Part shown: piece after piece, positions 8,440 to 64,000 of the stretch
How positions within the stretch are numbered: the stretch's first letter is position 1
Layout: each line of letters begins with the position of its first letter
Source: Pseudomonadota bacterium
GTDB taxonomy: Bacteria; Desulfobacterota; WTBG01; JAPLJA01
Assembly (NCBI GenBank): GCA_026388815.1
Contig: JAPLJA010000033.1
Location: 4,901 to 68,900, forward strand
Direction of reading: 5' to 3'
DNA: 64,000 nt
Notes under the pieces: generated by a model
What the model was told of the DNA's origin: nothing
Databases searched by the model: none
Seen by the model: the letters and a program-made list of their open reading frames with translations, nothing else
Position numbers and translations under genes: made by a program

Positions 8440-8582
8440 AACCATCCTCCCGTTGAATAAATGTTATTATCCATCAGATTGAGTTTGAGTGAGTATATAG
8501 CAAAGACGATAAAAGAAATCAATTGAATAACAGAAAAAGGATTATCCTCAAAATGAAGACTGAAAAAGGTAATGGGGGAAGG

Positions 8583-38947: not shown

Positions 38948-38966
38948 GCGGACATCGTAAAAAATA

Positions 38967-40736: not shown

Positions 40737-40803
40737 TTAAATATGAAAAGATTAATTTTCAGTCTTTCATTCACAAGTGTGATGATTAACGGGTGAAATT
40801 ATT

Positions 40804-41574: not shown

Positions 41575-41584
41575 GAACACCATT

Positions 41585-42580: not shown

Positions 42581-42588
42581 ATTCCTAA

Positions 42589-44571: not shown

Positions 44572-44608
44572 ATTGGCAAAGTGTGAGTTTCTATCTCGGT
44601 TATGATTT

Positions 44609-46278: not shown

Positions 46279-46295
46279 TCAGCAAGGAGAAGAAT

Positions 46296-48121: not shown

Positions 48122-48140
48122 TCATTCTATACTGATTATT

Positions 48141-48815: not shown

Positions 48816-49440
48816 TGCCGTCATCTTTGATTTTGATGGTGTTCTGGTTGAATCTGTAGATGTCAAGACCCAGGCTTTTGCAGCACTATATGCAGAATAT
48901 GGGCAGGAAATCGTTGAAAAGGTTATTGCCTATCATTTACAACATGCCGGCGTATCCCGCTTTGACAAATTTCGGTATTTTCAGGAAGTATTGTTGGGTA
49001 AGCGTCTAAGTGAAGAAGAGGAAAAGATGCTTTGTGTACAATTTTCCGAATTGGTTGTTGATGCTGTCGTCGTCGCGCCATGGGTACCAGGAGCCAAAGA
49101 ATTTTTAGAACGTTTTTACAAGGAAATACCTCTGTTCATTGCATCTGGTACTCCAGATGATGAAATCAAAGAGATTGTAAATAGACGGCAAATGTCGCAT
49201 TATTTTGTTTCAATTCATGGTACACCGGCAAAAAAAGCTGAAATTATTAACACTATTTGGAATAAATTTGGTTTTGAGAGAAAGCGTATGCTGATGGTTG
49301 GCGATGCCGTCGCTGATTACGAGGGAGTTATTCTGACGGGTATATGTTTTATTGGACGAGTTCAGCATTTGGATAAGAACACATTTCCTGAAAGTGTACA
49401 TGTAATCAAGGATTTATGCATGTTGCATCATTATGTATAG
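48802..49440 (+). CDS. HAD-superfamily hydrolase
   Basis: IFDFDGVL, ASG, MVGDA..D. Confidence 0.88.
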   Translation: MRKYDAVIFDFDGVLVESVDVKTQAFAALYAEYGQEIVEKVIAYHLQHAGVSRFDKFRYFQEVLLGKRLSEEEEKMLCVQFSELVVDAVVVAPWVPGAKEFLERFYKEIPLFIASGTPDDEIKEIVNRRQMSHYFVSIHGTPAKKAEIINTIWNKFGFERKRMLMVGDAVADYEGVILTGICFIGRVQHLDKNTFPESVHVIKDLCMLHHYV

Positions 49441-51376
49441 TAATGGCGAAAAATCGATGTCAAATGAGTCTCATGATAGTATCGTAATATCTTTACCTTG
49501 TTCAAGCCTTTCTACAATTACATCTTTTTTTGATCATGAAGTATCGGTTCCGTGGCTTTATCTTGGCAAGGATTACTTTAAAAAAAGTTGGTTAGAAAAG
49601 AAATTGGGGAGTAAATATTTTCTTATAGATATTGCCAAGCTCCTTGATCAAGTTGCAAAAGACATAAGGAACGATCATGTCAGTTGGATAGACGAATTGA
49701 ATAAAATTAATGGTCAAAACATTGATTGGTGGTTTGCTTCGATATCTTCGAGGAATATTTACTGTAGTAACTTGTTCCAATTTTGCTGTTATTTGGAAGT
49801 CTTAAAGCGGCTCTGGATTGATCAAGGAATTCGTCCACGATTGCTTTTTGTGGAATCTGTCGGTTTATCAAAGGTCATCCAGAAGTGGGCATTCAATAAA
49901 GGCATTATCACGTATGTTATTAATCAACATATTCTTCTATTGAAGCGTATAAGTAATTGTTTTTATCTCATCATGCGATATGTTAATTTTATCATTGCTT
50001 TGATAGTAAAATGGCTTGCTGCCTTTATAACAAGATTAGGATCGATTCCAAATCAAGGACAGGGAGATTTATTTGCCATCATAGATACGTTCATTCATGA
50101 AAATAGTCTATCTGAGGATGGCTCTTTTAAGGACCGATACTATCCACATCTTCATGAGTATTTAGGTGAGCGTGGCCTATACTCAATGATACATCCAGTT
50201 CTTCATGGCTTTCGCTTTAATTATTTTTCTATCTATCAGAGAATGCGCAGATCCAAATCGCATTTTATCATTCCTGAAGATTACCTGGGTATTCTTGACT
50301 ATCTATGGATCATTTCTCATCCGCTTCGCGTATTGAGAACTGAAGTCGTGATGGTTCGATTTCGCGAGCATGATTTAGAGAATATTACGAATGAAGAAAA
50401 ATGGATTACAGCATGTTCTGGGCTTCAAGCTGCTTTAATCTATCGGCTATTTATAAAGCTTGGTCGTTCAGATATGCGTCCAAAAATTATTATTAACTGG
50501 TATGAAAATCAGGTAATTGATAAAGCCCTCATTGCCGGCGCCCGAAAAGCGTTTCCAAGAGCGAAAATAATTGGGGCACAGATGTTCATTCATTCACCGA
50601 ATCATTTGAACTTATTTCCATGCCAATCGGAGGTTAATGCGAGTATTATCCCGGATATGCTTCTTGAAACGAGCGAATACCAATGTAATGTTGCTGCCAG
50701 TTTTTGCAAAAATATAACGTGCAGGCCAGCAGCGGCGTTACGATATGCACATTTGTTTACTGATATGCGGGTAGATGTCGCAGAATTCGACGCCTCAGTA
50801 GTAAATATCTTAATACTGTTACCCTTTGATGTCGCCGAATCTATAGAGATGCTGGATGTGATTAAGAAAGCAATTTATTACCTTGAGGAAAATATCAAAT
50901 TCATAATAAAAATTCATCCCGATAATTCGCCAGAGTTTTTATTAAAATTCTTTGGCGCACATGGGTTCCCGCCTCAATTTGAGATATTTTATGGTAGCCT
51001 GCCTGAGGCTTTGCAGAGCGCGTCTATGGTAATTTCTTCGAACTCAAGTTCTATGGTAGAGGCAGCGGTGTATGGTTTACCTATAATCTTTTTAAGTCAG
51101 CAAACAGTACTCAACCAAAATCTGCTAACAAATATGATGAAACATACAAAAATTGTCATGGAATGTTTTTCTGTTTCAGATTTGATTGTAGCAATTAAAA
51201 AATATATCTTTTTATCAAAGGAAGAAAAAAAAGAATATATTTCGATTGGCAAAAATATTAGAGATATTTTCTTTACAGAAATAAATGAAGAAACCATGAA
51301 AGCTTTCATTGACCAAGATATTACATCGATTGCTAATGAAGAAAACAATAACTATGTATCAGGAAAAGTTATCTAA
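49433..51376 (+). CDS. Surface-carbohydrate biosynthesis protein (LIC13510-like, GT-B-like C-terminus)
   Basis: 647-aa ORF with DRY, YENQ..DKAL, IKIHP and SS..VEAA..GLP; family assignment is from memory. Confidence 0.55.
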   Translation: MYSNGEKSMSNESHDSIVISLPCSSLSTITSFFDHEVSVPWLYLGKDYFKKSWLEKKLGSKYFLIDIAKLLDQVAKDIRNDHVSWIDELNKINGQNIDWWFASISSRNIYCSNLFQFCCYLEVLKRLWIDQGIRPRLLFVESVGLSKVIQKWAFNKGIITYVINQHILLLKRISNCFYLIMRYVNFIIALIVKWLAAFITRLGSIPNQGQGDLFAIIDTFIHENSLSEDGSFKDRYYPHLHEYLGERGLYSMIHPVLHGFRFNYFSIYQRMRRSKSHFIIPEDYLGILDYLWIISHPLRVLRTEVVMVRFREHDLENITNEEKWITACSGLQAALIYRLFIKLGRSDMRPKIIINWYENQVIDKALIAGARKAFPRAKIIGAQMFIHSPNHLNLFPCQSEVNASIIPDMLLETSEYQCNVAASFCKNITCRPAAALRYAHLFTDMRVDVAEFDASVVNILILLPFDVAESIEMLDVIKKAIYYLEENIKFIIKIHPDNSPEFLLKFFGAHGFPPQFEIFYGSLPEALQSASMVISSNSSSMVEAAVYGLPIIFLSQQTVLNQNLLTNMMKHTKIVMECFSVSDLIVAIKKYIFLSKEEKKEYISIGKNIRDIFFTEINEETMKAFIDQDITSIANEENNNYVSGKVI

Positions 51377-51840
51377 TTTATATTCGTCGTTGTTTCTGCC
51401 TTATAAATTTGGTTTTGTTCTTGGACATACATATTTGACAAATCAGCAAATCCTCAAGATGAGAGAGATTCTATATTCTCATGGCAATCAGGAAATTTTA
51501 GATGAATATGAAACAAAAATGGTAAATTTAATCGGTTCAGCAGGGTATGGAATCAGTTTTGCTGCCGGCAGGATGGCATTTTACTCGATTCTTCAAGCAC
51601 TAAATATTAGATATGGCGATGAAGTCATATTATTCGGTTTTGCGAGTGTCGAAGCGATGGCACATCAGTTGCGCGTTGTTGCAACAAATACTGGAGGGAT
51701 ACCTGAAGTAGTGGTTAATGCTTAAGGTAGCTACGGTGTGGATAACCGTGATGTAGATTCCTACGTCCGATGCATTATTTATTAATCTTTTGAAGGATGA
51801 AGGCCTGAGGAGGGAACAGGGGAAAAGGGTTATGAAAGGT
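51354..51840 (+). pseudogene. Chimeric remnant: DegT N-terminus fused to a GT4 C-terminal fragment
   Basis: FAAGRMAFY..L.AL....GDEVIL, then VEAMA...VVATNTGGIPEVV, a stop, then frameshifted LLKDEGLRREQG. Confidence 0.7.
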
Positions 51841-51969
51841 ACCATAAGTATTTTACTGCAGAACGTATGTCCCTTTAGTATGTGTGAATAATACACAGTC
51901 TGGTGGTGCAAAAGTGAACACATGTGTACTGCAAGACCAGTATGATAAAATACAGATAAGAGAATTTGC

Positions 51970-53427
51970 ATGAAAATAGATCGGATTCTCCTTATTGCTC
52001 CACCCGCCTTCACCACGAAGAGATGGCGGGATATAAATCCGCTTCCTCCGATGGGGCTCGGTTATCTTGCATCTGTAGCCGAAGGTTTAGGAATAAAGGT
52101 AAAGATTCTTGATTGTCTAATGCATGGGTGGGAACATGAAGAATGTGTTGATAAAAACTTCGTCCGAGTTGGATTATCGGATAAGGAGATTGAAGAGAAA
52201 ATTATTGAGTTCAAGCCTGATCTTGTTGGGATAAATTGCCAATTTAGCAGGCAATATAAGATTTATCACAAGATTTTTTCTCTGATAAAAAAGGTTGACC
52301 AGCGCATAATAGTCGTTGCCGGTGGTCCTCACGCAACCGTTTGCCCAGAAGAGGTGCTCAACGATGATAATTGTGATTATCTTTTGTCTGGTGAAGCAGA
52401 AGATTCATTTCGTGAACTGATCGAAGCACTCCAACAGGACACCGAAATTGCATCCATCGATGGATTAGGATGGAAGACTAAGGAAAAGCTCCAGCTTAAC
52501 CCGAAAATGAAATTCATTCATGATCTTAATGCACTTCCTTTTCCGGCTTATCATATAATGGAGTTGGATAAGTATTTTGGTTTGGACACGTCTCATGGCA
52601 CAAGGCACAAGAAACGTTTTTGTCCCATTATTACATCGCGCGGATGTCCTGCCAAATGCACTTTCTGCAGTGCACACCAGGTATGGGGCAATAAATACAG
52701 AATGAGATCGGTAGAAAATGTTATTGAGGAAATGAGGTTGCTTAAAGATCGATACGGTGTCGAAGAAATCATGTTCGAAGACGATAATGTGACAGCAGAT
52801 GCCAAGAGAGCAAAACTCTTATTTTCGAGGATGATAGATGAGCGTTTTGACTTTGTTTGGGATACTCCGAATGGTGCTGGCGTATGGTCAATGGATGAGG
52901 AACTGATTGATTTAATGAAACAATCTGGTTGCATTATGTTGAATTTCCCGGTTGAGAGTGGTTCGCAACATGTTTTGAAGAATATAATCAAGAAGCCCCT
53001 TGACTTGGGAAAAGTTAAGAGGTTAGTAAAATATTGTCAGAAAATTCGTCTGGACCATTCCATGTTTATAGTTATTGGCAGTCCGGGCGAAAAAATAACG
53101 AATATGTGGGAATCATTCAAATTCGCAGTGGAATGTGGGTGTTTTTCTCCTCATATATCTGTTGCAACGCCTTATCCTGGGACTCAACTATATGAAGACT
53201 GTGTTAAGAATGGTTATTTTGCAAGACCCTATTCACTTGATGACCTTTTTATTAGAAGCTTTCTTATCAGAACGCCGGATTGGAACGAGGAAGACTTGAA
53301 GAAGGTTCTTTTCAGAGGAAATCTTTATCTTAAACTAAAAAGTATAATAGTACATCCATCCAAAATAATAAAATATGCTATCAAAATTATCTTAAGACCA
53401 TCGATAGTTATTCAACTGTTCAAGTAA
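51970..53427 (+). CDS. B12-binding radical SAM protein
   Basis: PPMGLGYLAS, AGGPHAT, GEAE, SRGCPAKCTFC, ESGS, TPYPGT. Confidence 0.92.
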   Translation: MKIDRILLIAPPAFTTKRWRDINPLPPMGLGYLASVAEGLGIKVKILDCLMHGWEHEECVDKNFVRVGLSDKEIEEKIIEFKPDLVGINCQFSRQYKIYHKIFSLIKKVDQRIIVVAGGPHATVCPEEVLNDDNCDYLLSGEAEDSFRELIEALQQDTEIASIDGLGWKTKEKLQLNPKMKFIHDLNALPFPAYHIMELDKYFGLDTSHGTRHKKRFCPIITSRGCPAKCTFCSAHQVWGNKYRMRSVENVIEEMRLLKDRYGVEEIMFEDDNVTADAKRAKLLFSRMIDERFDFVWDTPNGAGVWSMDEELIDLMKQSGCIMLNFPVESGSQHVLKNIIKKPLDLGKVKRLVKYCQKIRLDHSMFIVIGSPGEKITNMWESFKFAVECGCFSPHISVATPYPGTQLYEDCVKNGYFARPYSLDDLFIRSFLIRTPDWNEEDLKKVLFRGNLYLKLKSIIVHPSKIIKYAIKIILRPSIVIQLFK

Positions 53428-53467
53428 ATTTATAAGCGGTAAAAGAAGATAAGAAAGGAATTTAACT

Positions 53468-54574
53468 ATGCTACCAGTATCCAGACCATCAATAGGCAGT
53501 GAGGAACTTGAAGAAGTAAAAAAAGTGTTTGATACGGGATGGCTTGGCTTGGGGTCAACAGTTTTTGAGTTTGAAAACGCGGTTAAGGAATATTTGGGGG
53601 CTAAAAACGTTATTGCCGTAAATACTGGGACGACGGCACTCCACATTGCATTTGATGCCTTTGGTATCACCGAAGGGGACGAGGTCATTGTTCCATCCCT
53701 TACCTTCTGTGCATCTATCCAGGTCATTACCGCCTTGAGGGCAATCCCTGTATTCTGTGAGGTTGATCCTGATACATTAAATATTGACATTAATGATCTG
53801 AGAAAAAGAATAACTCCCAGAATAAAGGCGATCATGCCCATACACTACTGCGGGAATGCCTGTGATATGGATAGTCTTCTGGATATTGGCAAAAAGCATA
53901 GCATTCTCATTATTGAAGATGCTGCACATGCTTTTGGCTCATCTTATAAAGGGAAAAAGATAGGAAGTTTTGGTGATGTTACCTGCTTCAGTTTCGACCC
54001 CATAAAAAACATTACCTGTGGTGAAGGCGGGGCAGTGGTGCTCTCTGACGATGATATTGCGGAAGAAATTCGTCGAAAGAGAATTTTGGGAATAGATAAG
54101 GACACTTGGCACCGATACCAAAACAAAAAGAGCTGGTTCTATGAAGTGACTACACAGGGGTACCGTTATCACATGAGCAACATCAATGCGGCAATCGGGC
54201 TTGCCCAATTAAAAAAGATAAGTGTATTTATAGAAAAAAAGAGGAAAATTGTTGCGACCTACAATGAGGCTTTTAGGTACTTAAAGGGCATTAAGATTCT
54301 GAACTGGAACCGTGATGAAACTGTTCCCTTCACATATATGATAAGAGTTCTTGATGGCAGACGTGGCGAAATGATGGATTTCCTGAATGAAAAGGGCGTG
54401 GGTACTGGTGTCCACTACATCCCGAATCATCTGCAACCATTCTTCAAGCCTTTCTCTACACCACTGCCCATTACAGAACAAGTTTATGAAGAGATACTTA
54501 CACTACCCCTATATTACGATATGACTGAGAACGATATAGATTTGGTGATTCAATCAATCATTGCCTTTTTTTAG
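53468..54574 (+). CDS. DegT-family aminotransferase
   Basis: NTGTTALH, EDAAHAFG, SFDPIKNITCGEGG, LTLPLY. Confidence 0.93.
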   Translation: MLPVSRPSIGSEELEEVKKVFDTGWLGLGSTVFEFENAVKEYLGAKNVIAVNTGTTALHIAFDAFGITEGDEVIVPSLTFCASIQVITALRAIPVFCEVDPDTLNIDINDLRKRITPRIKAIMPIHYCGNACDMDSLLDIGKKHSILIIEDAAHAFGSSYKGKKIGSFGDVTCFSFDPIKNITCGEGGAVVLSDDDIAEEIRRKRILGIDKDTWHRYQNKKSWFYEVTTQGYRYHMSNINAAIGLAQLKKISVFIEKKRKIVATYNEAFRYLKGIKILNWNRDETVPFTYMIRVLDGRRGEMMDFLNEKGVGTGVHYIPNHLQPFFKPFSTPLPITEQVYEEILTLPLYYDMTENDIDLVIQSIIAFF

Positions 54575-54603
54575 TCAGCGTTTACATGGCGCGGGAATAT
54601 TAA

Positions 54604-55542
54604 ATGAAACCAGCAGTGAGCATTAATCTTTGTTGTTACAATTCGGAAAATTATTTGCGAGAAACGATAGACAGTATTGTAAAACAGACATATAAAAACT
54701 GGGAGCTTATAGTAATTAACGATGGTTCGTCAGACTCGACAGAATCCATAATTTATGAATATATAAAAAAAGGGTACCCAATAATTTATCATTACCAGGA
54801 AAACAAGGGGCTTGGATATTCCCGGAACGAGGCGCTTAAACGTTCAAATGGTGAATTTATTGCCCTTATTGATCATGACGATATCTGGATGCCCAACAAA
54901 TTAGAAATGCAAATACCGTGTTTCGAAAAGAAGCCCACTATTGGTTTTGTTTTTAGTAATGCGATATATTTCTCAAACTCAAGTAAGAATATAAGATTTA
55001 ATTTGTATGGAAACCGCAAACCGCCTAGTGGGAGAATATTTGGTGAATTATTAAAACGTAATTTTATATGTATATCAACTGTCATTATCAAAAAGACAGC
55101 ACTGATGGAACTTGAACAAAAGTTTGATGAGAGATTCAAGTTCGGAGAAGAATTAGATGTTTTTTTAAGAATATTATACAAATGGGAAAGTGTATATGTA
55201 GATGGGTATTTAACGATGTACAGGATGCATGCAAATAGTTTAACGTCCCGAATGCCTGAAGTAATTCCTAAAGAAATGGAGATGATTATTTCAAGGCTAA
55301 AACGGTTATATCCTGAGATAGAAACGAATTATAAATATGAGCTGAATGTAATGAGAGCTAATATACAATATTTATACGCTTTAGAAGATTTCCGTTGCAA
55401 TAGAAGGAAGGATTTAAGAAAACGACTTGCGCCCTATCTTATGATAGAGAAAAAGTTGTGGATGCCATACATTTTTTCTTTTTTACCTTTCTCTTTTTAT
55501 AAATACTTGCTAAGTCTGAAAAAAAACCAATATAAATTTTAA
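54604..55542 (+). CDS. Glycosyltransferase family 2
   Basis: YNSE, NDGSSDST, NKGL..SRN, IDHDD.W.P.KLE. Confidence 0.9.
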   Translation: MKPAVSINLCCYNSENYLRETIDSIVKQTYKNWELIVINDGSSDSTESIIYEYIKKGYPIIYHYQENKGLGYSRNEALKRSNGEFIALIDHDDIWMPNKLEMQIPCFEKKPTIGFVFSNAIYFSNSSKNIRFNLYGNRKPPSGRIFGELLKRNFICISTVIIKKTALMELEQKFDERFKFGEELDVFLRILYKWESVYVDGYLTMYRMHANSLTSRMPEVIPKEMEMIISRLKRLYPEIETNYKYELNVMRANIQYLYALEDFRCNRRKDLRKRLAPYLMIEKKLWMPYIFSFLPFSFYKYLLSLKKNQYKF

Positions 55543-55694: not shown

Positions 55695-57446
55695 ATGAAC
55701 ATTATTGTCTGCCTCCTAACATCACTTCTGCTCAATCTCTATGGTGTGGACTGGGGTCTTCCATCTCCGAAGAAGACTGCGCTCGTTTTTCCCGTGGCCA
55801 GGGAAAATGAAAAATTGTTCGGCATGCTGAAAGAGGGGATGAGCAACAAGCAATCTGAAGCGATGCATTCTTTCAACCGCTATGGGATGGATAATCATAA
55901 AGGTTTGGAGTTTTTTCCGGATCGGTTCCCCCGTGATGAGCGGATGCAGACCTTTCTGCGAAGCTACCTCCTTGCTACATGTCAGGAGGGAGAATATTCT
56001 GTCGTTTCCTCGGTGAGCGGCATGAAAGGATGGCGCCTGAGTCTCAATCCCCGCTTCTTCCGGTACGGCGGTTGTTTCGTCTACACGGTGGGTTTTGTGC
56101 TGAAGGTGACCTCTCTGTTTGAGTGGACCAGCCTCCCCTCTGATCTTTCGTCCTCCCTGAATAACCCTGATGCAGTAAGAAGGGTATACATCGCCGGAAG
56201 GCTGGTGATGGTTATTGCGGTCATGCTGAGCTGCCTTCTCCTCTACCTCCTCGGCAAGAGCCTGTACGGGAGGGAAGCAGGGCTCCTTGCTGCCCTCGCC
56301 TTCGGGGTTTCACCCGGCGTGGTTGCATCCGCCCATACCATGAAGCCGTATATCTTCGGGGTATGTTTTATCCTCCTCTTTCTCATGTGCACCGTGAAGA
56401 TGAAAAACAGTGGCACCCGGTACTCATACGTTCTTGCGGGCATCTTTCTGGGACTCGCTGCCGGCTCGTCTCTCTCTTTCCTCATCTTCTTCTTTCACCT
56501 CTTCATCTGCCACCTGCTCCGCACGCCAAAAGGGGGAATAAGGGCATATGCCGCCTCTCTCAAGGAGGGCAATTTTCTCCTCGCTCTCGGCTCCGTGCTC
56601 CTTGCTCTCCTGCTCACCAACCCCCACTACCTCCTCTCCTGCAGAGAGGTGTTCACCGAGATGAGTTTCCGGATACAGCAGGTATCTTTTTCTCTCTCTT
56701 CAGAGCAGGCGGGTCAGTTTGCATTTTCCTTTTTCTGGATGATCCATGGTATTACTCTTTCACTGATTATTGCCGTCGGCCTGTTCTTTTCGCTGACCAG
56801 AGGCAGGGAGTACTGGTTTCTTCCCCTGCTCCCGGTTCTCTATTTCTTGCTGATGTCTGCAATCGTTGATACGGGGGATCAAACCTACCTGGATTTTTCG
56901 CTCTCTTTAGTCCCCTTTACCGCTCTCCTTGCCGGTATTGGCGCTCAGAACCTCCTCGCATTCCAAAAAAGGTGGATCAGGGTCCTTCTTCTCCTCGTGC
57001 TAACAGTAACTTTTTTCCATTCCCTCCTCTACTCCTATAACTTCAAGCAGGATACATCACAGGACAGCACTTTTTACCGGGCAGGGGCGTGGATTAATCA
57101 CACTGTTCCGCAGGGATCGAGTATCGGACTCCTGCATACCTTTACGCCGACAACCACACCCCCCTTTGATTTCAGAAAATTCCGAATCGCTATCTATGCA
57201 CCCCAGGATCTCTCCTCACGTAAAACACAGCTCTCTCAATATTTTATTTCCGCCAGGCGGATTGATGATCTCCTTGTCCCCCATTATCAGCTCTTACAGT
57301 CCTTTTCCCCTTCATGGCCTCTTTCAACGTTAGGATTCAAAGATCATTTTACCAGGGCTAATCCACCGGTATTCATCTATAAGAGAATTCAGGAGTCAGG
57401 CGCCAGAATTCAGAATCAAAGTGGAGAGCAACTACCGCCATTTTAA
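55695..57446 (+). CDS. GT-C fold polytopic glycosyltransferase (ArnT/PMT_2-like)
   Basis: WGLP, LNPRFFRYG, many TM segments, GLLAA..F..SP, TNP. Confidence 0.72.
   Translation: MNIIVCLLTSLLLNLYGVDWGLPSPKKTALVFPVARENEKLFGMLKEGMSNKQSEAMHSFNRYGMDNHKGLEFFPDRFPRDERMQTFLRSYLLATCQEGEYSVVSSVSGMKGWRLSLNPRFFRYGGCFVYTVGFVLKVTSLFEWTSLPSDLSSSLNNPDAVRRVYIAGRLVMVIAVMLSCLLLYLLGKSLYGREAGLLAALAFGVSPGVVASAHTMKPYIFGVCFILLFLMCTVKMKNSGTRYSYVLAGIFLGLAAGSSLSFLIFFFHLFICHLLRTPKGGIRAYAASLKEGNFLLALGSVLLALLLTNPHYLLSCREVFTEMSFRIQQVSFSLSSEQAGQFAFSFFWMIHGITLSLIIAVGLFFSLTRGREYWFLPLLPVLYFLLMSAIVDTGDQTYLDFSLSLVPFTALLAGIGAQNLLAFQKRWIRVLLLLVLTVTFFHSLLYSYNFKQDTSQDSTFYRAGAWINHTVPQGSSIGLLHTFTPTTTPPFDFRKFRIAIYAPQDLSSRKTQLSQYFISARRIDDLLVPHYQLLQSFSPSWPLSTLGFKDHFTRANPPVFIYKRIQESGARIQNQSGEQLPPF
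57384..57417 (+). repeat. Heptamer array (AGAATTC/AGGAGTC) in the 3' end of a CDS
   Basis: agaattc aggagtc aggcgcc agaattc agaatc; same family as 63889-63922. Confidence 0.75.
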
Positions 57447-57520
57447 ATACAGGGAGGATATTCCGTGAAGAAAATGCTTCCCTTGAATTTTTTAGAGATG
57501 AGTGTTAAATAACAATTAAT

Positions 57521-57593
57521 GAGTTCAGGAGTGGGAGAGTCAGGGAGTTTTTCATAGAGCTCTTGAACTCCGCAACTCGCTAACTCCGTAACT
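57521..57593. repeat. Inverted octamer-period arms (GAGTNNNN x4 ... AACTCNNN x3.5)
   Basis: gagttcag gagtggga gagtcagg gagttttt ... aactccgc aactcgct aactccgt aact. Confidence 0.75.
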
Positions 57594-57605
57594 AATGATT
57601 TATTT

Positions 57606-58334
57606 ATGGATCAGAATACTTTAATACTCATACCCGCCTTTAATGAGGAGAAAAATATTAAACAGGTAATCTCCGGTATAAAGCAACTCTGGCCGGAAAC
57701 ACATATTCTGGTTGTAAATGACGGTTCCAGAGATGATACAGCTTCAGTTGCTCTGAAGATCGGTGGAGAGGTGATCAGTCTTCCTTTTAACTTAGGCTAT
57801 GGTGTGGCCTTACAGACCGGTTATAAGTATGCTATAAACAAGGACTATAAATATCTTATCCAGATGGATGGGGATGGACAGCACGACCCTGCTTATATAG
57901 ATGACCTGCTTAAAGTGGTTACATTGAACGAGGCAGATGTGGCCATTGGTTCAAGATTCTCTTCCGAGGAGAAAAGGGGTACCTACAGGGCGGGATTTTT
58001 CAAGAAGATAGGCATGAAGTTGTTTGGCCTGATTACTTCCATCCTCATCGGTCAGAAGGTTACTGATCCAACTACTGGTTACCAGGCGATGAATAGAAGG
58101 GTCTTAGAATTTTTTGTAAGTGATATCTATCCAGTGGATTTCCCAGATGCAGATGTCCTCATTATGCTCCATCGGGCAGGTTTTAGAATCAGAGAAGTGC
58201 CTGTGGCTATGCACCAGAGCGTAAACAACAGGTCTATGCACCGCGGCCTGGTTCCTCTCTACTATGTGTTCAAGATGTTTCTCTCGATATTTGTGGAACT
58301 GCTGCGCAAGATGCCGAGGAGGGAAGTACAATAA
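57606..58334 (+). CDS. DPM1-like GT2 (polyprenyl-phosphate glycosyltransferase)
   Basis: IPAFNEE, NDGSRDDT, NLGYG.ALQTG, MDGDGQH, GSRF, TDPTTG. Confidence 0.9.
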   Translation: MDQNTLILIPAFNEEKNIKQVISGIKQLWPETHILVVNDGSRDDTASVALKIGGEVISLPFNLGYGVALQTGYKYAINKDYKYLIQMDGDGQHDPAYIDDLLKVVTLNEADVAIGSRFSSEEKRGTYRAGFFKKIGMKLFGLITSILIGQKVTDPTTGYQAMNRRVLEFFVSDIYPVDFPDADVLIMLHRAGFRIREVPVAMHQSVNNRSMHRGLVPLYYVFKMFLSIFVELLRKMPRREVQ

Positions 58335-58350
58335 AAGTCATGCGTCAAAC

Positions 58351-58589
58351 GGTTGGGCAGCTGGTCTCGGTAGACGTAAAGGGTTATGGGTCCACGCAAC
58401 CGATTAACGATAGACGAAACGAGCCTCGCAACCGTATAACGAATAACTTTTTAAAAGGTTGCGCAGCTGGTCTCGGTAGACGTAAAGGGTTATGGGTCCA
58501 CGCAACCGATTAACGATAGACGAAACGAGTCGCGCAACCGTATAACGAATAACTTTTTAGAAGGTTGCGCAGATGGTCTCGGTAGATGT
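58351..58589. repeat. 106-bp tandem repeat, two full copies plus the left arm of a third; each unit is an imperfect hairpin
   Basis: Units start at 58351, 58457 and 58563; ends GGTTGCGC...GCGCAACC. The right arm recurs at 59000-59043. Confidence 0.92.
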
Positions 58590-58598
58590 TGAACATAT

Positions 58599-59048
58599 AT
58601 GGATGAAGTAAAAAAACCAATAAGGAGTTTTCACGATCTGGAGGTATACCAAAGTACCTATGAAGCAATGCTAACAGTGTTTAAAAATATTTTGCCAAAG
58701 CTGCCTAAGGAAGAAGAATATGACCTGAAGGATCAACTCCGCCGTTCAGCAAAAGCGATCCCGCGGTTAATAGCTGAGGGACATTCTAAAAGGCATCAGA
58801 AAAGGGGTTTTCAGAAATACCTCGATGATGCAATGACTGAATCGAACGAAACCATAGTTTCCATAACACAAGCTCGTGACCTGTACGGAAGTTGTGTTGA
58901 TGTCACTTTGTGTAATGAGCTGATTAATATCTATGATAAAACGAGCAGACAGTTGTATAATTTTTCTGTAGCCTGGACTAAGTTCAATGAACGCAAGGAG
59001 TCCACGCAACCGATTAACGATAGACGAAACGAGTCGCGCAACCTTTAA
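58599..59048 (+). CDS. Four-helix-bundle protein (23S rRNA IVP / bAvd-like family)
   Basis: SFHDLEVYQ, LPKEEEYDLKDQLRRSA..IP..IAEG, F..YL..A..E..ET. Confidence 0.9.
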   Translation: MDEVKKPIRSFHDLEVYQSTYEAMLTVFKNILPKLPKEEEYDLKDQLRRSAKAIPRLIAEGHSKRHQKRGFQKYLDDAMTESNETIVSITQARDLYGSCVDVTLCNELINIYDKTSRQLYNFSVAWTKFNERKESTQPINDRRNESRNL

Positions 59049-59073
59049 TTACGATTAACGGGTATTTAGAACG

Positions 59074-59460
59074 ATGCCACTGAGGCAAAAAATCTTCGTC
59101 ATCCTGATCAGCATTGCACTCATGATATTTATTGTTGAGCTTGTGCGCAGGCGGAAGCTCAGGGAGGAATACTCCTGGCTGTGGCTGCTCACCGGTGTCA
59201 TCATCCTGATCCTGGCAAGCTGGCATGACCTGCTCATATACGTAACTCAATTCATCGGGGCAGCCCTCCCTACCTCAACGCTTTTCTTCCTGGGCCTGGT
59301 CTTCCTGTTCCTGATAGCAGTCCAGTTTTCCACGAAGATTTCCAAGCTCACAGATCAGGTCAAGAACCTTGCCCAGGAGAACGCCCTGCTGAAGTCGAGG
59401 ATTGAGAAGATGGAGGGAAACAAGGAGAAAGGGATTGAAGAGCGACAAGAAAAAGATTAG
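59074..59460 (+). CDS. DUF2304 membrane protein
   Basis: IVELVRRRKLREEYSWLW...S.KISKL...VKNLAQE.ALL. Confidence 0.88.
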   Translation: MPLRQKIFVILISIALMIFIVELVRRRKLREEYSWLWLLTGVIILILASWHDLLIYVTQFIGAALPTSTLFFLGLVFLFLIAVQFSTKISKLTDQVKNLAQENALLKSRIEKMEGNKEKGIEERQEKD

Positions 59461-59551
59461 CTTTCAGCTCTCAGCTTAATTTATTAATTAGTAAGGCTGA
59501 TAGCTGATCGCTGATAGCTGACAGCTTTTCAATGGCTGAAAGCTGACAGCT
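59459..59551. repeat. Inverted heptamer arms (TCAGCT.../...AGCTGA) around an AT-rich loop
   Basis: agctttcagctctcagct - taatttattaattag - gctgatagctgatcgctgatagctgacagct ... gctgaaagctgacagct. Confidence 0.85.
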
Positions 59552-59567
59552 ATATCAAGGAGACATA

Positions 59568-60989
59568 ATGGAAAAGAGACTAAGCAAGAAGCAGATGAAG
59601 CATCTGAGGGAGAGCTATCAGTTCAAATCTGACGAGGAACTTGCCAAGGAATGGCAGACGGATAGCGATACGATCCAGAAGGCGTTGAAGACCATGGGCC
59701 TGAGGAGGACGAAGGCTGAGCAAAAGCAGGTTGTCCGTATTGCTGAGGCAGATGCCAGGAGGGAAATAAGGGTCGAGGCAGGCAGGGAATGGCTCTGGAC
59801 TCTTCTCTCTGTTTTCTCGATTATCATCCTCGGTGCCATAGTGTATTCAAATACCCTCAACGCTTCCTGGCATTTCGATGACTCGGTTGTTGTCACAGAG
59901 AACTGGGGATTGCGTGACCTCAGGGGGAATTTTAATACTATTTTTTCAGCAAATCGCAGTGTTGGTTTCTTTACGTTTGCCCTGAATTATTATTTCAATA
60001 AATTGAACGTTACAGGCTACCATGTGGTCAATATTTTCATTCATATTGCAAATGCTTTGTTCGTTTATTCCCTGATCATGCTCACCTTGAAAACGCCAGC
60101 AATGGTTAAGAGCAGGCTTGCAAATCATGCACGTTTTTTAGCCCTCGCATCTGGCCTCATCTTCGTCTCGCACCCCATTCAAACCCAGGCAGTTACGTAC
60201 ATTGCCCAAAGGTTTACCTCACTTGCTACATTCTTTTATCTCCTCTCTCTTCTTCTCTTCGTGAAGGCTCGATTAACTTTCCTTCAGGGAAAGAGCTTTT
60301 TTTCTCCTCTTCACTGCATCTGTTACTGCTTTTCATTATTGTCTGCCTTCCTTGCCATGCATACAAAGGAGATTACCTTCACCTTACCATTTATCATTAT
60401 CCTTTATGAATTGTTCTTCATTGACTCCACCTTGAAATCATGGGGGAAAAGGTTCCTGTATCTTTTACCGTTTATCCTCATGCTTGCAATCATCCCAAGC
60501 ACCGCCTTAAAGCTCTCGGCGGGAGACAAGCCCATCGGAGACATAATCGGTGAGATCCGGGAACAGGTTCAGGAGACGCCCCTTATATCCCGTGGTGATT
60601 ACCTCTTAACCCAGTTCAATGTCATTGTTACGTATATCCGGCTTCTCTTGCTGCCCATGAATCAAAACCTTGATTATGATTATCCTATTGCCCGGAAACT
60701 TTTTCAGTTCCCGACTTTTCTTTCCTTTATGTTCCTCCTTGCCCTGTTCATCGTGGCCATCTATCTCTTTTTTAAAAAGCGCCGCCTCATCTCCTTTGCC
60801 ATACTCTGGTTTTTTATAACCCTCTCAGTTGAATCGAGCATCATCCCCATCCGTGACGTGATCTATGAGCACCGTGTCTATCTGCCCAGCGTGGGATTTG
60901 TAATCTTGATAGCGATTTTTCTCCATGAGTCGGGAGAGAGCTTTCGTCAGAGATTTTTACAGAAACCGCCTGTTGAGAAAAAACAATAG
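59568..60989 (+). CDS. TMTC-like GT-C glycosyltransferase membrane domain (TPRs encoded separately)
   Basis: YSNTL...WHFDD, YH..N..IH..N, HPIQTQAVTYI.QR, KE, YEHRVYLPSVG. Confidence 0.85.
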   Translation: MEKRLSKKQMKHLRESYQFKSDEELAKEWQTDSDTIQKALKTMGLRRTKAEQKQVVRIAEADARREIRVEAGREWLWTLLSVFSIIILGAIVYSNTLNASWHFDDSVVVTENWGLRDLRGNFNTIFSANRSVGFFTFALNYYFNKLNVTGYHVVNIFIHIANALFVYSLIMLTLKTPAMVKSRLANHARFLALASGLIFVSHPIQTQAVTYIAQRFTSLATFFYLLSLLLFVKARLTFLQGKSFFSPLHCICYCFSLLSAFLAMHTKEITFTLPFIIILYELFFIDSTLKSWGKRFLYLLPFILMLAIIPSTALKLSAGDKPIGDIIGEIREQVQETPLISRGDYLLTQFNVIVTYIRLLLLPMNQNLDYDYPIARKLFQFPTFLSFMFLLALFIVAIYLFFKKRRLISFAILWFFITLSVESSIIPIRDVIYEHRVYLPSVGFVILIAIFLHESGESFRQRFLQKPPVEKKQ

Positions 60990-61009
60990 GGATCATCAAC
61001 TCTTCCTGG

Positions 61010-61834
61010 ATGGATAGGATTACATTTTTGCTTCTCCTGTTTTTCATTTTCTCCCTTTCTTCCACCACGTTTAAGAGAAATTATTGCTGGGTCAGCGAAT
61101 CACATTTTGTTGAAGACATCATGAGGAAAGCGCCAGGAAAGGCAAGAACTCACCTCATCGGAGGAGTATACTATTTCAAAAAGGAAAGATATGAAGAAGC
61201 ACAAAAAGAATATCAGAAGGCCATTGAACTTAATCCCTTTTATCCTGAGGTGCACAATAACATGGGAAATTACTTTTTCATAAAAGGAGAATATGACAGG
61301 GCATTGGCTGAGTATCAGAAGGCTCTATCCCTGAATCCTTCTCTTTCCTGGGCACACTATAATATGGGGCATGTACTCCTGCAGAAAGGACGGTATGCAG
61401 AAGCAATTGCAGAACTTAAAAAATCAGGAGGTCCATCTGGTCTCCTCCCCCCGGATGCTTATTTTGATTTAGGTCTTGCCTATAAGATGACGGGTCAAAT
61501 CGGCCAGGCTATCAGTCACTATCAGGAGACCATAAGGCTTGATCCTACCATGGTCAGGGCCTACACAAACCTTGGGAATCTTTATAACAGGAAGGGTCTT
61601 CTTGATCGGGCTGTTGAAACATACGAGGAAGGATTGAAGCTTGATCCTCGCAATACTCTCCTCCTTGCCAATTTAGGTCAGACGCTGAGCCAGAAAGGAG
61701 AGTATGACAGGGCAATAGAAGTGTTGGCAACGGCATTAAAAATCAGGGGAGATCTCTCTTTTGCCCGGGATAATCTGGAGACGACACTAAAAGCAAAGAA
61801 CAATAAGCAAAGAGCGCAGAGTAACAAGCCATGA
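61010..61834 (+). CDS. TM + TPR module 1 (TMTC C-terminal half)
   Basis: TM helix, then KRNYCW...KAPGKAR and several TPRs; frame open from 60977, no clear SD. Confidence 0.82.
   Translation: MDRITFLLLLFFIFSLSSTTFKRNYCWVSESHFVEDIMRKAPGKARTHLIGGVYYFKKERYEEAQKEYQKAIELNPFYPEVHNNMGNYFFIKGEYDRALAEYQKALSLNPSLSWAHYNMGHVLLQKGRYAEAIAELKKSGGPSGLLPPDAYFDLGLAYKMTGQIGQAISHYQETIRLDPTMVRAYTNLGNLYNRKGLLDRAVETYEEGLKLDPRNTLLLANLGQTLSQKGEYDRAIEVLATALKIRGDLSFARDNLETTLKAKNNKQRAQSNKP
61792..61833 (+). repeat. Degenerate heptamer array (AGCAAAG type) at a CDS 3' end
   Basis: agcaaag aacaata agcaaag agcgcag agtaaca agccatg. Confidence 0.55.
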
Positions 61835-61877
61835 GGCACGAACAGATAGCAGGGACTCCAGAGTACGGAGTGGGTAA

Positions 61878-62774
61878 TTGAATCGCATGATGCGCCTTTT
61901 TTTCTTATCTCTCGTTATTCTCTCCTACGTAGTGGGAACTGCTTCGCGCAATCGTGTCTGGAGCAATGATGTAACCCTCTGGAATGACTGTATTGAAAAG
62001 AACAAGGCCAAGGCCAGATACAAGGCCAGACCCTATCGTATTTATGCAGACAGCCTGAAAAGGGAAAATAATTTTGATAATGCAATTAAATTTTATCGGG
62101 AGGCTATGAAGTTCGATCCAAAGTCACCTTTGACCTACAACAATTTAGGAGTGATATTAGAAACACAAGGAAGTCTAACTCAAGCCGAATTGTTGTACCG
62201 GCAGGCGCTGACTATCTGGCCGTATTACCCAGATGCGCTCAACAATCTGGGTAACATCTTCATGAAACGGGGTGTGCTTGACCAGGCCATAGACTATTTC
62301 ACCCTGGCGGTAAAGCTAAAGCAGGATCCGGATTACTGCTACAACCTCGGCAGTGCTTACCAGCGCAAGGAGCAGTGGGACAAGGCCATAATCTGGATTC
62401 AAGAGGCTCTGAAGCTAAAGGATGACCTGGAGTATGCCCACAACAACCTCGGGGTCAGCTACTGGAGGAAGGGACTCTACGAGCAGGCACTGGCAGAATT
62501 TAGAAGGGCTCTGGAGATCAAACCTGATTTTTTCGATGCCCATGCCAATCTGGGGCTCCTCTACTACAGCGGGTATAAGGATAATACTCAGGCACTCTTT
62601 CACCTTACCCGTGCCCTAACCATTGCACCCGCTCATCCCCAGGCTGGAATGATCAAGGGGGTGGTGGAAGAAATACAGAGGAAGGGTCAAAGGGTAGCTT
62701 TCAGCTATCAGCGGGATAAAAAAAGCGGTCAGCGGTCAGCTTTCAGCCTCACGATTGAGAAAGATACAGTATGA
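61878..62774 (+). CDS. TM + TPR module 2 (TMTC C-terminal half)
   Basis: TM, SRNRVWSNDVTLWND, TPRs (YNNLG, ALNNLG, AHNNLG); the tail is repeat-derived. Confidence 0.85.
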   Translation: MNRMMRLFFLSLVILSYVVGTASRNRVWSNDVTLWNDCIEKNKAKARYKARPYRIYADSLKRENNFDNAIKFYREAMKFDPKSPLTYNNLGVILETQGSLTQAELLYRQALTIWPYYPDALNNLGNIFMKRGVLDQAIDYFTLAVKLKQDPDYCYNLGSAYQRKEQWDKAIIWIQEALKLKDDLEYAHNNLGVSYWRKGLYEQALAEFRRALEIKPDFFDAHANLGLLYYSGYKDNTQALFHLTRALTIAPAHPQAGMIKGVVEEIQRKGQRVAFSYQRDKKSGQRSAFSLTIEKDTV

Positions 62775-62990
62775 AGGATTTTAAAAAGTTAAGCGTGTGG
62801 CATAAAAGCCACCAATTGACATTGGCTGTTTATAATTAAAGCTGAGAGCTGAATGCTGAAAGCTAAACGCTATTTAATAATTAAGCTGAGAGCTGAAAGC
62901 TGACCGCTGACAGCTATTAACCTGAGAGCTGAGCACTTACAGCTTAATCATAATTAAAGCTGAAAGCTGACCGCTGAAAGCTGATAGCTA
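62696..62990. repeat. Inverted heptamer arms (TCAGC left, GCTGA right) enclosing a four-helix-bundle stump
   Basis: Left arms at 62696-62712 and 62724-62747; four right-arm blocks at 62840-62990 separated by AT-rich spacers. Confidence 0.88.
62771..62839 (+). pseudogene. Truncated four-helix-bundle gene
   Basis: Translates to MKDFKKLSVWHKSHQLTLAVYN-stop, the typical N-terminus of this family. Confidence 0.8.
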
Positions 62991-63006
62991 AACACCGAGC
63001 GCTAAT

Positions 63007-63924
63007 ATGGTTGCACGACTAAATTTAATGATGATTGTTCTCGCAGTCTCACTGTTGTCATTTTCCCGTAACGCTATATGGAGAGATGATCTTTCCCTCT
63101 GGTCAAACGTGGTAAAGGGCAGTCCAACAAAGGCCCGCGGGTACAATATGCAGGGTGTATCGTATATGGATAAGATTCGCTATAAAGAAGCATTATCCTG
63201 TTTTTATCATGCGCTCAAACTCCAACCCTCCAAGCCTCAGACCCTGGTGAACCTGAGCAGGTACCATATCCTCCATGGCCTATACGAAGAGGCGATGAGG
63301 GAATGTCGAGAAGCCCTTGCGGTGATGCCTGATAATTGGGGGGCACATCTAAATCTCGGTGTCGCCTATTTCCGGCAAGGTTACGTAGATGAGGCAATAA
63401 GTGAGTATCAGAATATCCTGAAGAGCGAATCAACCTTTTATAAGGCTTTGAACAATCTTGGTCTCGCCTATCAAAAGAAAGGAGCGTTAAAGGAAGCATC
63501 TGTTTGCATTCGTGAGGCAATCAGAATAAATCCAGATTATCCTGAAGCCTATTTCAACCTGGGGGAAGTGTTACATGCCATGGGACAGGTAGATGAAGCA
63601 CTCCTTAAGTATGAGCGGGCAGTTGCATTAAGTCCTGACTACTGGGAGGCAGGCTACAACCTCGCAAACCTCTATGCAGAAAAGAAGGATTATACGAGGG
63701 CAGTGGAGGCCTATAAAAAAGTTCTAAGCATAAATCCAGCTTTTTCTCCAGCCTGGAACAATCTGGGTAATATATATTTTATGACCGACCGGATTAAGGA
63801 AGCCAAAGACAGTTATGCAAAGGCGCTCCGGTATGATCCGGGCAATGTGCAGGCGAGGAACAATCTGGAGATGGTGATGCGGGGAAGACAGAATTCAGAA
63901 GTCAGGAGTCAGAATTCAGAATGA
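63007..63924 (+). CDS. TM + TPR module 3 (TMTC C-terminal half)
   Basis: TM, SRNAIWRDDLSLWSNVVKGSPTKAR, multiple TPRs; tail QNSEVRSQNSE is repeat-derived. Confidence 0.87.
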   Translation: MVARLNLMMIVLAVSLLSFSRNAIWRDDLSLWSNVVKGSPTKARGYNMQGVSYMDKIRYKEALSCFYHALKLQPSKPQTLVNLSRYHILHGLYEEAMRECREALAVMPDNWGAHLNLGVAYFRQGYVDEAISEYQNILKSESTFYKALNNLGLAYQKKGALKEASVCIREAIRINPDYPEAYFNLGEVLHAMGQVDEALLKYERAVALSPDYWEAGYNLANLYAEKKDYTRAVEAYKKVLSINPAFSPAWNNLGNIYFMTDRIKEAKDSYAKALRYDPGNVQARNNLEMVMRGRQNSEVRSQNSE

Positions 63925-64000
63925 AGACAGAAGGCGAAGAACAGAATACAGCAATGAGCAATCAGCATTCAGCTATCAGCGGTCAGCAACCCGAAACCCG
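63889..64000 (+). repeat. Composite heptamer arrays (CAGAATT, TCAGCNN, AACCCGA)
   Basis: cagaattcagaagtcaggagtcagaattcagaat ... gcaatcagcattcagctatcagcggtcagc aacccga aacccg. Confidence 0.8.
63921..64000 (+). CDS. Possible start of the next gene (runs off the window)
   Basis: ATGA overlap with the module 3 stop; frame open to the end (MKTEGEEQNTAMSNQHSAISGQQPET). Confidence 0.35.
   Translation, partial: MKTEGEEQNTAMSNQHSAISGQQPET

Follow-up and report, generated by a model that had tools for sequence, protein, structure and literature searches.

Can the last membrane helix of a glycosyltransferase be supplied by another gene, or even by several alternative ones? This question is raised by a locus at the end of a 64,000-nucleotide stretch from a genome catalogued as Pseudomonadota bacterium (GenBank assembly GCA_026388815.1, contig JAPLJA010000033.1, positions 4,901 to 68,900), which was analysed as a whole and is called the window here (G000:C267:4901-68900; C numbers denote contigs and L numbers loci). 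Within it, a gene for the membrane part of a GT-C glycosyltransferase, named MEM or simply the core, ends one helix early and is followed by a row of genes, modules M1 to M5, each starting with a membrane helix and continuing into tetratricopeptide repeats (TPRs). This layout is real, conserved and under selection. Beyond the layout, we infer an enzymatic activity, its sugar, its acceptor (including that the acceptor is a protein) and the alternation of modules on the core. The reading that we favour, and consider somewhat probable, is a split periplasm-facing GT-C enzyme of the TMTC, ArnT or PMT kind, whose modules would alternate on one core and set the choice of acceptor. The row is arranged as follows, its last members being taken from the same contig beyond the window end (locus L009).

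59568..60989, + strand: MEM, GT-C catalytic core, 473 amino acids (AlphaFold2 model, structural matches, alignment with fused homologues)
61010..61834, + strand: module M1, 274 amino acids; helix 11, then RN..W...K.R, then TPRs
61878..62774, + strand: module M2, 298 amino acids, TTG start; the last ~25 amino acids read through a heptamer-repeat array
63007..63924, + strand: module M3, 305 amino acids; docking partner modelled with MEM
63921..64000, + strand: start of module M4, 478 amino acids; continues past the window to L009:4258 (L009:2822-4258)
L009:4786-5688, beyond the window end: module M5, 300 amino acids; after a 119-amino-acid four-helix-bundle gene

Where the chain is divided

All four open reading frames (ORFs) that the original prediction had placed within the window are present, and its view of a split membrane enzyme with tandem modules stands with two amendments. 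The three modules become five in the row, one core and five modules in total once the contig is read past the window end, with three further free ones elsewhere in the genome; and the parts are hardly halves, as the division sets ten helices against a single helix with its TPRs. Spacers along the row, from the core to M4, measure 20, 43, 232 and -4 nucleotides, the start of M4 overlapping the stop of M3 by 4 nucleotides.

Where exactly does the core stop, and what do the modules add? MEM and the five modules were aligned with five fused homologues of 554–730 amino acids. MEM matches these up to the cytoplasmic loop after the tenth, penultimate helix, where it ends with ...EHRVYLPSVGFVILIAIFLHESGESFRQR..., and each module aligns to their last helix, to the motif RN..W.D..LW.D...K...K.R and to the TPRs, much as had been proposed for the first ORF and the three that follow it. 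Four module residues, R21, N22, W25 and R44 in M3 numbering, do not vary among the 25 modules aligned from the window and its related loci, and W32 and K42 are at least 90% conserved across this set. The Pfam families TPR_1 and TPR_2 match M1–M3 with E-values from 1e-33 to 1e-49 and four to six repeats each (TPR_1: 5e-36 to 2e-45). Judged by these alignments, helix 11 and the periplasmic TPR domain, which form the C-terminus of a single chain in relatives, are encoded here by separate genes. The fused bacterial GT-C+TPR proteins, annotated 'tetratricopeptide repeat protein', are 43–57% identical to the core over helices 1–10 and share its invariant motifs, the helix 11 with RN..W and the TPRs; they are, however, single chains of ~550–850 amino acids, whereas in the row helix 11 and TPRs are separate and multiplied. 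No functional study of these fused proteins was found in the literature searched.

Might the split be an assembly or sequencing artefact in a normal fused gene? A case of this appearance is provided by a sister clade (L029 and L030), in which a fused gene is interrupted at a run of 8–9 T. At the window locus, however, the core-M1 junction is spanned without indels by metagenome contigs from two studies (runs X1 and X2 of study P1 and X4 of study P3, X1 possibly being the sample behind the window assembly), the same stop before helix 11 recurs in 11 related loci and in L100–L102, and one frameshift cannot yield five complete modules. We reject the artefact, whose chance we regard as negligible. 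Separately, a read-through fusion of core and M1 was considered and discarded: read directly from the sequence, the core stop and the M1 start do not share a frame, and reading past the stop would leave the two proteins unjoined.

The nature of the core is revealed by its predicted fold. An AlphaFold2 model of MEM (predicted local distance difference test, pLDDT, 86.2; predicted template modelling score, pTM, 0.83) consists of a short three-helix N-terminal part followed by ten membrane helices, a count read from the model's secondary-structure string and not a topology prediction. The conserved loops 94–144, 202–210, 265–268, 314–380 and 426–439 lie on one side of the model. When 48,161 chains were searched with VIA-align without a Foldseek prefilter, the top 20 were all GT-C-fold proteins (Z 9.7–17.4), namely glycosyltransferases plus the GPI-transamidase subunit PIGU. 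Pmt2 (6p2r_B) is the best match with Z 17.4 and a root-mean-square deviation of 4.9 over 331 aligned residues; others include STT3B (16.5), AglB (16.4), Pmt4 (16.3), ArnT (15.2) and PglB (14.6), with EmbA last at 9.7. The first row after these 20 is a designed helical protein at Z 6.8.

Across 70 homologues the (near-)invariant residues are D104, D105, R130, H202, P203, T206, V209, Y211, Q214, R215, K267, E268, T272, D369, Y370, D371, Y372, P427, E434, H435, R436 and Y438. The acidic motif F103-D104-D105 follows helix 1, with D104 invariant and D105 at least 90% conserved in this set; together with H202-P-I-Q-T-Q-A-V-T-Y-I-A-Q-R215 and E434-H-R-V-Y-L-P-S441 it completes the motifs that had been noted in the first ORF, all of which are found. 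By its modelled fold and its DD motif MEM is a GT-C enzyme core, in agreement with the catalytic membrane part that had been proposed. Core and module helix combined would give an 11-helix topology, N-terminus in and TPRs out, as described for TMTC proteins. As a side observation, core residues 1–48 (59568-59710) form a cytoplasmic extension of three short modelled helices (pLDDT ~78–94) without a family match, which is highly conserved in the clade with 78–89% identical cores and absent from fused homologues and from L029/L101.

How far does this type of helix 11 extend in the genome? A hidden Markov model (HMM) of the helix plus motif, run against all genome ORFs, returns the five row modules at 65–77 bits and three further free modules, C183:21434-22318 (63 bits), C265:7490-8449 (59) and C265:6534-7235 (56). 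On this helix-11 profile, itself derived from free modules, scores of 26–70 bits (median 53) are obtained for 216 fused proteins that have at least 540 amino acids and are 43–58% identical to the core, and of the genome's own fused paralogues (~30% identical to MEM) only 3 of 7 score at all, at 21–23 bits. The three extra free modules therefore appear to carry the core's type of helix 11. One of them, C183:21434-22318 on the - strand, is an orphan of 295 amino acids, with helix, NRN..W and TPRs in this order and no GT-C gene nearby.

Conservation, selection and descent of the split form

The core family itself is very large, with 37,493 representatives at E ≤ 0.001, 19,019 at 1e-10 and 5,566 at 1e-30. 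Among the best 150 representatives, 142 have at least 517 amino acids and eight have 360–456; the best 120 clusters at 90% identity divide into 36 (the window's own included) of 377–485 amino acids without a Pfam domain and 84 with TPR families. A phylum sample of 301 genomes contains 11, the window's own among them, with a match at E ≤ 1e-80, and the other ten comprise nine open frames of 551–807 amino acids and one cut by a contig end. The order-level genome set consists of the window's own genome alone. The locus itself is found in communities of freshwater sediment or groundwater. The architecture is a rare variant of a very common, little-studied fused family, and in the full-text literature searched, no split bacterial GT-C+TPR enzyme and no free helix-11-plus-TPR subunit was found described.

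Is the layout then peculiar to this genome? Related loci were analysed by classing ORFs of at least 100 amino acids by BLASTP to the window proteins (E ≤ 1e-6) and by a match to R[NDSTG]..W within residues 1–110. In 11 of 11 metagenome loci whose core is 78–89% identical (L020–L028, L033 and L034), the core lacks TPRs and is followed by TPR ORFs. Ten of them contain flagged helix-plus-motif modules, one to five depending on contig ends; in the eleventh, L034, the ORF caller began after the helix. Several of the 11 are near-duplicates, so that they amount to about five lineages. The order of a family-2 glycosyltransferase gene (GT2), a gene for a small DUF2304 membrane protein, the core and M2-M3-M4-M5 is kept in related loci: M2 orthologues occur in L021, L022, L025, L026, L028 and L033, those of M3 in L021, L022, L025 and L033, those of M4 in L021, L022, L033 and L025, and those of M5 in L021, L022 and L033. 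A homologue search with M5 residues 1–60 gave 18 candidates, none of them at E ≤ 0.001, the query being too short for the word index.

A more distant example comes from a set of 78 genome loci for which the TPR-less relative P0026 served as query. Among these, L100–L102, from records titled Thermodesulfobacteriota, are split. L101:7813-19250, from a metagenome-assembled genome, encodes a GT2, a DUF2304 protein, a core of 451 amino acids ending after helix 10 and five modules of 329–512 amino acids, with a fused paralogue following; the modules have QRN..W at residues 22–35 and are only 28–36% identical to those of the window. This layout points either to an independent module expansion or to an old divergence with transfer between phyla. 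The arrangement of one core and several modules is thus conserved in the 11 metagenome loci and in L100–L102, and relatives do not encode only full-length copies. Another split form exists in L151 (and L049/L050). L165 (record title Omnitrophota) was not counted as split, with its break inside helix 11 and abutting ORFs.

The sister clade L029 and L030, 57–60% identical, has one fused gene with a single TPR part, broken at the run of 8–9 T mentioned above. At the break site (L029:1880-1990, L030:2480-2600) a -1 shift leaves the invariant EHR.YLPS segment in a frame without an upstream start codon, and this break recurs in two diverged contigs and in four protein clusters of 377–378 amino acids (P0012, P0014–P0016). 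It could reflect slippage, homopolymer phase variation or a conserved break.

Could the modules be decaying leftovers of tandem full-length genes whose membrane parts were deleted? In favour of this, at least six fused paralogues stand in tandem in the same genome, and the row has repeat arrays and a gene remnant between its modules. Yet all five frames are intact, as are their orthologues in other loci (for M1, in one locus), and the spacers are too small for membrane-domain remnants. Selection adds to this. By the Nei-Gojobori method, ratios of nonsynonymous to synonymous substitution rates (dN/dS) in pairs with the window are 0.09–0.18 for MEM, 0.22 for M1 (one pair), 0.15–0.21 for M2, 0.13–0.18 for M3, 0.12–0.16 for M4 and 0.18–0.21 for M5. 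Close pairs (L022 with L033 or L023, L021 with L025) give 0.20–0.46 for modules at dS 0.016–0.41 and 0.22–0.23 for DUF2304. The original prediction had singled out modules 2 and 3 as candidates for decay; the range of 0.12–0.46 over all modules indicates purifying selection instead, by these ratios somewhat weaker than that on the core. Decay is rejected as highly improbable.

Where did the modules come from? A tree was calculated from the helix-11 region plus 240 residues of 28 modules and 72 fused proteins, the latter entered when they had at least 560 amino acids, the motif beyond residue 330 and a piece of at least 200 amino acids (at least 150 for own-genome paralogues). It is a quick IQ-TREE run supported by the Shimodaira-Hasegawa-like approximate likelihood ratio test (SH-aLRT) only. 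M1, M2, M3, M4 and M5 each form a clade across contigs (SH-aLRT 95–100). The closest group of M2 and of an alternative first module found in some relatives is the TPR part of the single gene in the sister clade (SH-aLRT 100), which makes this lineage the core's original tail.

A core proposed to be completed in trans

Does a module fit the core? Core residues 70–473 (alignment A3) and M3 (alignment A4) were modelled as a complex, which scored 0.87 in three runs versus 0.00 for the best of three controls, with a partner pLDDT of at least 87 and at least 90% of contacts common between runs. In calibration, 116 of 157 solved complexes passed the mark, as did 2 of 215 mismatched pairs, figures that are only rough here as own alignments were supplied. 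In the model, the M3 helix (residues 1–19) packs on core residues 88–103 at the end of helix 1, 190–211 of helix 3 and the HP.Q..AV loop, and 448–460 of helix 10. R21, N22, W25, K42 and R44 of M3 contact core residues Y93, N95, H202, P203, T206, Y211 and N365-D371; the contact set of M3 residues 1–48 also includes F103, and residues 143, 145 and 174–177 of the TPR part touch the core as well. Family-invariant residues of both chains are thus predicted to meet, and the M3 head is modelled as a good helix 11 for this core. The docking of modules on the membrane part that had been envisaged is accordingly a prediction for M3 alone.

How would such an enzyme be supplied with sugar? The genes directly ahead of the core offer a suggestion.

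57606..58334, + strand: GT2 glycosyltransferase (PF00535, E 2e-26), a candidate polyprenyl-phosphate sugar synthase (GacI/PpgS/DPM1-like)
58599..59048, + strand: four-helix-bundle gene of the '23S rRNA intervening sequence protein' family (PF05635, E 2.5e-18; TIGR02436)
59074..59460, + strand: DUF2304 small membrane protein of the GacJ/Rv3632 family (PF10066, 93.9 bits, cutoff 25.5)

Both the GT2 and the DUF2304 gene, already proposed as the feeding pair, lie upstream with conserved synteny: they precede the core in related loci of several clades, and DUF2304 stands directly upstream of the core in every related locus extending that far. Here the two are split by the inserted four-helix-bundle gene, while they are adjacent in L022, L024, L025 and L027. 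In Streptococcus pyogenes, GacI (GT2) and GacJ (DUF2304) are described to form a complex in which GacJ lowers the Km for undecaprenyl phosphate and raises the Vmax; their product GlcNAc-P-undecaprenol is used by the GT-C enzyme GacL, and in mycobacteria Rv3632 stimulates PpgS (bioRxiv 10.1101/180810). By analogy with the role reported in that preprint, the DUF2304 protein is likely the activator partner of the GT2. The best NCBIfam match of the GT2 is PpgS with 103.6 bits, below the 370-bit cutoff of this equivalog, and a match at this level does not name the sugar.

From these elements a mechanism can be proposed. GT2 and DUF2304 would load a sugar on polyprenyl phosphate at the cytoplasmic face, and the core would use this lipid-linked sugar at the outer membrane face. 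MEM would contribute helices 1–10 with all catalytic and donor-binding motifs, and helix 11 and the TPRs would come from separate genes. The helix of a module would insert beside core helices 1, 3 and 10, its RN..W...K.R segment would sit on the conserved periplasmic loops of the core, and its TPR domain would hold the acceptor; different modules would thereby direct the same core to different acceptors. In its full extent this describes a combinatorial glycosyltransferase, a ten-helix core completed in trans by any of up to eight helix-11-plus-TPR paralogues, each for a different acceptor, which we put forward tentatively and with less confidence than the favoured reading. Equally tentative is the comparison of the modules to exchangeable specificity subunits, in the manner of an E3 ligase with its many substrate adaptors; a GT-C enzyme with such subunits was not found described in the literature searched.

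A simpler arrangement would be a two-piece split enzyme, in which one module, either the adjacent one or that of the M2 lineage, completes the core and the others are membrane-anchored periplasmic TPR proteins with separate functions. The tree is compatible with this, as M2 and the alternative first module represent the original tail lineage and M1, M3, M4 and M5 are found elsewhere, and so is the presence of free modules beside complete fused enzymes. On the other hand, all 25 modules keep R21, N22, W25 and R44, the docked M3 (0.87) does not belong to the M2 lineage, and the helix-11 segments of all eight free modules reach 56–77 bits on one profile. We hold the two-piece version to be unlikely.

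Less likely still is that free modules serve the fused paralogues, displacing or adding to their TPRs, or act as general periplasmic TPR scaffolds or chaperones. Two free modules do lie inside the fused array of C265, and others are next to fused copies in L036, L037, L110, L115, L121, L123 and L131. This leaves a core that lacks its own helix 11 and TPRs and is nevertheless under purifying selection (dN/dS 0.09–0.18), and the helix 11 of the extra free modules is of the core's type, at 56–63 bits versus 21–23 for the fused paralogues.

The preferred reading, a split enzyme with alternating modules, rests on one docking model, conservation and analogy, and several observations weigh against it. 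Docking was run on one of eight modules, and split halves may pass because the model knows the fused family, in which case a pass shows likeness to helix 11 and not binding in the cell. The module helix could also be a cleaved signal peptide. An M1 orthologue occurs only in L026, and an alternative first module takes its place in L020, L021, L024, L025 and L027, so that the first module varies among relatives. The modules adjoining complete fused copies in the seven loci just named imply that free modules need not belong to a TPR-less core. In the quick tree the modules together are not one clade, and its starred branches force at least two changes. As to selection, module dS in most window pairs is 0.8–2.3 and partly saturated, and it is too saturated to compute for M3 between the window and L021, the window and L025, and L022 and L025, and for M2 between L026 and L028; in close pairs modules evolve faster than the core, at 0.35–0.46 versus 0.10 (MEM, L022 with L023). 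Finally, Foldseek against the PDB gives no MEM match at E ≤ 0.001, although its best rows are the same families, a PDB search with a TPR-free sequence profile of the core gives 0 matches at E ≤ 10 (a first profile, A2, had been swamped by TPR matches), and the Pfam families TMTC_DUF1736 (PF08409) and PMT_2 (PF13231) do not match the core.

This last point bears on the label 'TMTC-like' of the original prediction, for which neither the family match nor the single-chain topology is found. Neither Pfam nor NCBIfam returns a match for MEM, even at E ≤ 10, and the 25 families that most of the 70 homologues match do not include PF08409. For this family the closest paralogue in the same genome (C197) scores 24.3 bits, with a cutoff of 27, and the paralogue C265:2120-4330 reaches 24.0 bits for PMT_2 against 26.1. 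Protein-atlas neighbours are bacterial clusters in which 21–23% of members have PMT_2, and a eukaryotic PF08409 cluster lies near the core by features (rank 10, score 0.94); both serve as leads only. In a by-eye comparison with the motifs of TMTC proteins in Table 4 of PMC7801869, M1 (DD) and M4 (KE..T) are present in the core, M7 (ER..Y) is approximated by E-H-R-V-Y, and M2, M3 and M5 are only partly matched. DW is seen as D-Y, SHKSYRP and RxD keep the Arg only, and PxxP is not evident. Since PF08409 does not match, 'TMTC-like' rests on architecture, fold and part of the published motifs, and we file MEM as a GT-C enzyme core that would work like the TMTC or ArnT type, outside Pfam's TMTC family.

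Which known systems come closest? As described in PMC7801869, the eukaryotic O-mannosyltransferases TMTC1–4 have an 11-helix GT-C part followed by non-cytoplasmic TPRs, and their motifs include DD (loop 1), KE..T (loop 3) and, ahead of helix 10, one resembling ER..Y. Core and module together would match this outline, and TMTC homologues are reported there among prokaryotes; unlike the split form, TMTC1–4 are single chains with dolichyl-phosphate mannose as donor and cadherins as acceptors. Pseudomonas aeruginosa TfpW is presented as a bacterial GT-C protein that glycosylates pilin (bioRxiv 10.1101/2020.04.19.049825); its N-terminus is cytoplasmic, 11 helices are predicted, a DDx motif is essential, and the TPR domain at its C-terminus is periplasmic. 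The likeness is taken from this published description, and TfpW differs as a single 646-amino-acid chain encoded beside its acceptor gene. The GacI/GacJ/GacL and PpgS/Rv3632 systems share the adjacent GT2 and DUF2304 that also precede the core, and a pair of the GacI/GacJ type makes a polyprenyl-monophosphate sugar that a GT-C enzyme transfers outside the membrane; GacL, in the account of bioRxiv 10.1101/180810, has no TPR domain and a polysaccharide acceptor. For human TMEM260, also a GT-C enzyme, the TPR domain is reported to bind the acceptor peptide (bioRxiv 10.64898/2026.03.17.711096), which supports a role of the TPR part in acceptor choice, although TMEM260 appears there as one chain that also contains a Rossmann-like domain, and it is only distantly related.

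The family of GT-C enzymes with TPR tails is huge and includes the disease-linked human TMTC and TMEM260 enzymes, but its bacterial members have received hardly any study. Separate genes for core and TPRs, the latter in several versions, would make the choice of acceptor by the TPRs directly testable. If the proposed mechanism is true, a GT-C enzyme can obtain its last helix in trans, and one core may serve several targets, provided that modules alternate.

Sugar genes, repeats and inserted genes around the row

A second GT-C gene lies upstream at 55695-57446 (PMT_2, 35.5 bits), with a G+C content of 0.52–0.55 versus 0.32–0.47 in its surroundings; orthologues with 58–59% identity are found upstream in L024, L027 and L041. 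Further upstream, sugar-modifying genes form a long cluster on one strand (37201-55542): five methyltransferase-domain ORFs, a cytidylyltransferase, a SPASM radical SAM and a B12-binding radical SAM protein, two aminotransferases, a sulfotransferase, an epimerase, a 2-hydroxyacid dehydrogenase, a HAD hydrolase and a GT2. It also contains two large ORFs without a family, 38967-40736 and 49433-51376.

As for expression of the row, a search of 57400-64000 for promoters and terminators gave 8 and 4 sites versus 10.7 and 6.2 expected from shuffles, which leaves separate transcription units unsupported. A Shine-Dalgarno-like AAGGAG is clear before the core only, and such sites are weak or absent before most modules and the GT2.

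The spacers of the row are filled with repeats and inserted genes.

59496..59523, + strand: GCTGAnn heptamer array just 5' of the core, at a metagenome contig depth peak
62727-62747: further heptamer array
62768..62835, + strand: four-helix-bundle gene remnant in the M2-M3 spacer, 68 nucleotides of the 5' end, 84% identical to the start of the downstream intact gene (family D7)
62841..62986, + strand: three heptamer arrays in the M2-M3 spacer; in four metagenome runs the contig depth here is very high and loose ends are many
63960-63987, L009:4283-4303 and L009:4683-4800: further heptamer arrays in the row
L009:4343-4702: second four-helix-bundle gene, between M4 and M5

GCTGAnn arrays of at least three units occur 65 times on 31 contigs of the genome and not once in 1 Mb of shuffled sequence. 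Ten of the 65 fall in this 6.5-kb stretch, in both orientations, and the depth peaks and loose ends at the arrays mark them as a dispersed repeat. Parts of the proteins derive from them, the C-terminal tail of M2 and the N-terminal extension of M4 being translated heptamer repeats. The remnant at 62768-62835 lies between inverted heptamer arrays (pair I4), and four-helix-bundle genes are flanked by inverted repeats, for example a 19-nucleotide perfect pair around L009:4343-4702. The genome holds six such ORFs of the '23S rRNA intervening sequence protein' family, and the gene at the 58599-59048 site is present in L020 and absent from L022, L024, L025 and L027. By this comparison, the four-helix-bundle genes vary among related contigs as a mobile insertion would.

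What lies downstream of M5? Contig C267 ends with exactly 141 nucleotides that also begin C265, and a frame joined across them, from L009:6200-7726 (C267:72199-73725) into C265:1-~990, encodes a protein of 791 amino acids. It has an N-terminal signal-like segment, 11.4% Ser and 15.9% Thr (27% Ser+Thr) and no Pfam family; paralogues are encoded on C272 and C233, and homologues stand behind M5 in L033 (51% identity) and L021 (41%). One may speculate, from position and composition, that this Ser/Thr-rich, presumably secreted protein is a candidate surface glycoprotein acceptor. The fused GT-C+TPR paralogues, at least six in tandem and ~30% identical to the core, form an array over C265:2120-16910 (L003–L008), with the two free modules at C265:6534-7235 and 7490-8449 among them. 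If the two contigs are adjacent, this array probably lies directly downstream of the locus.

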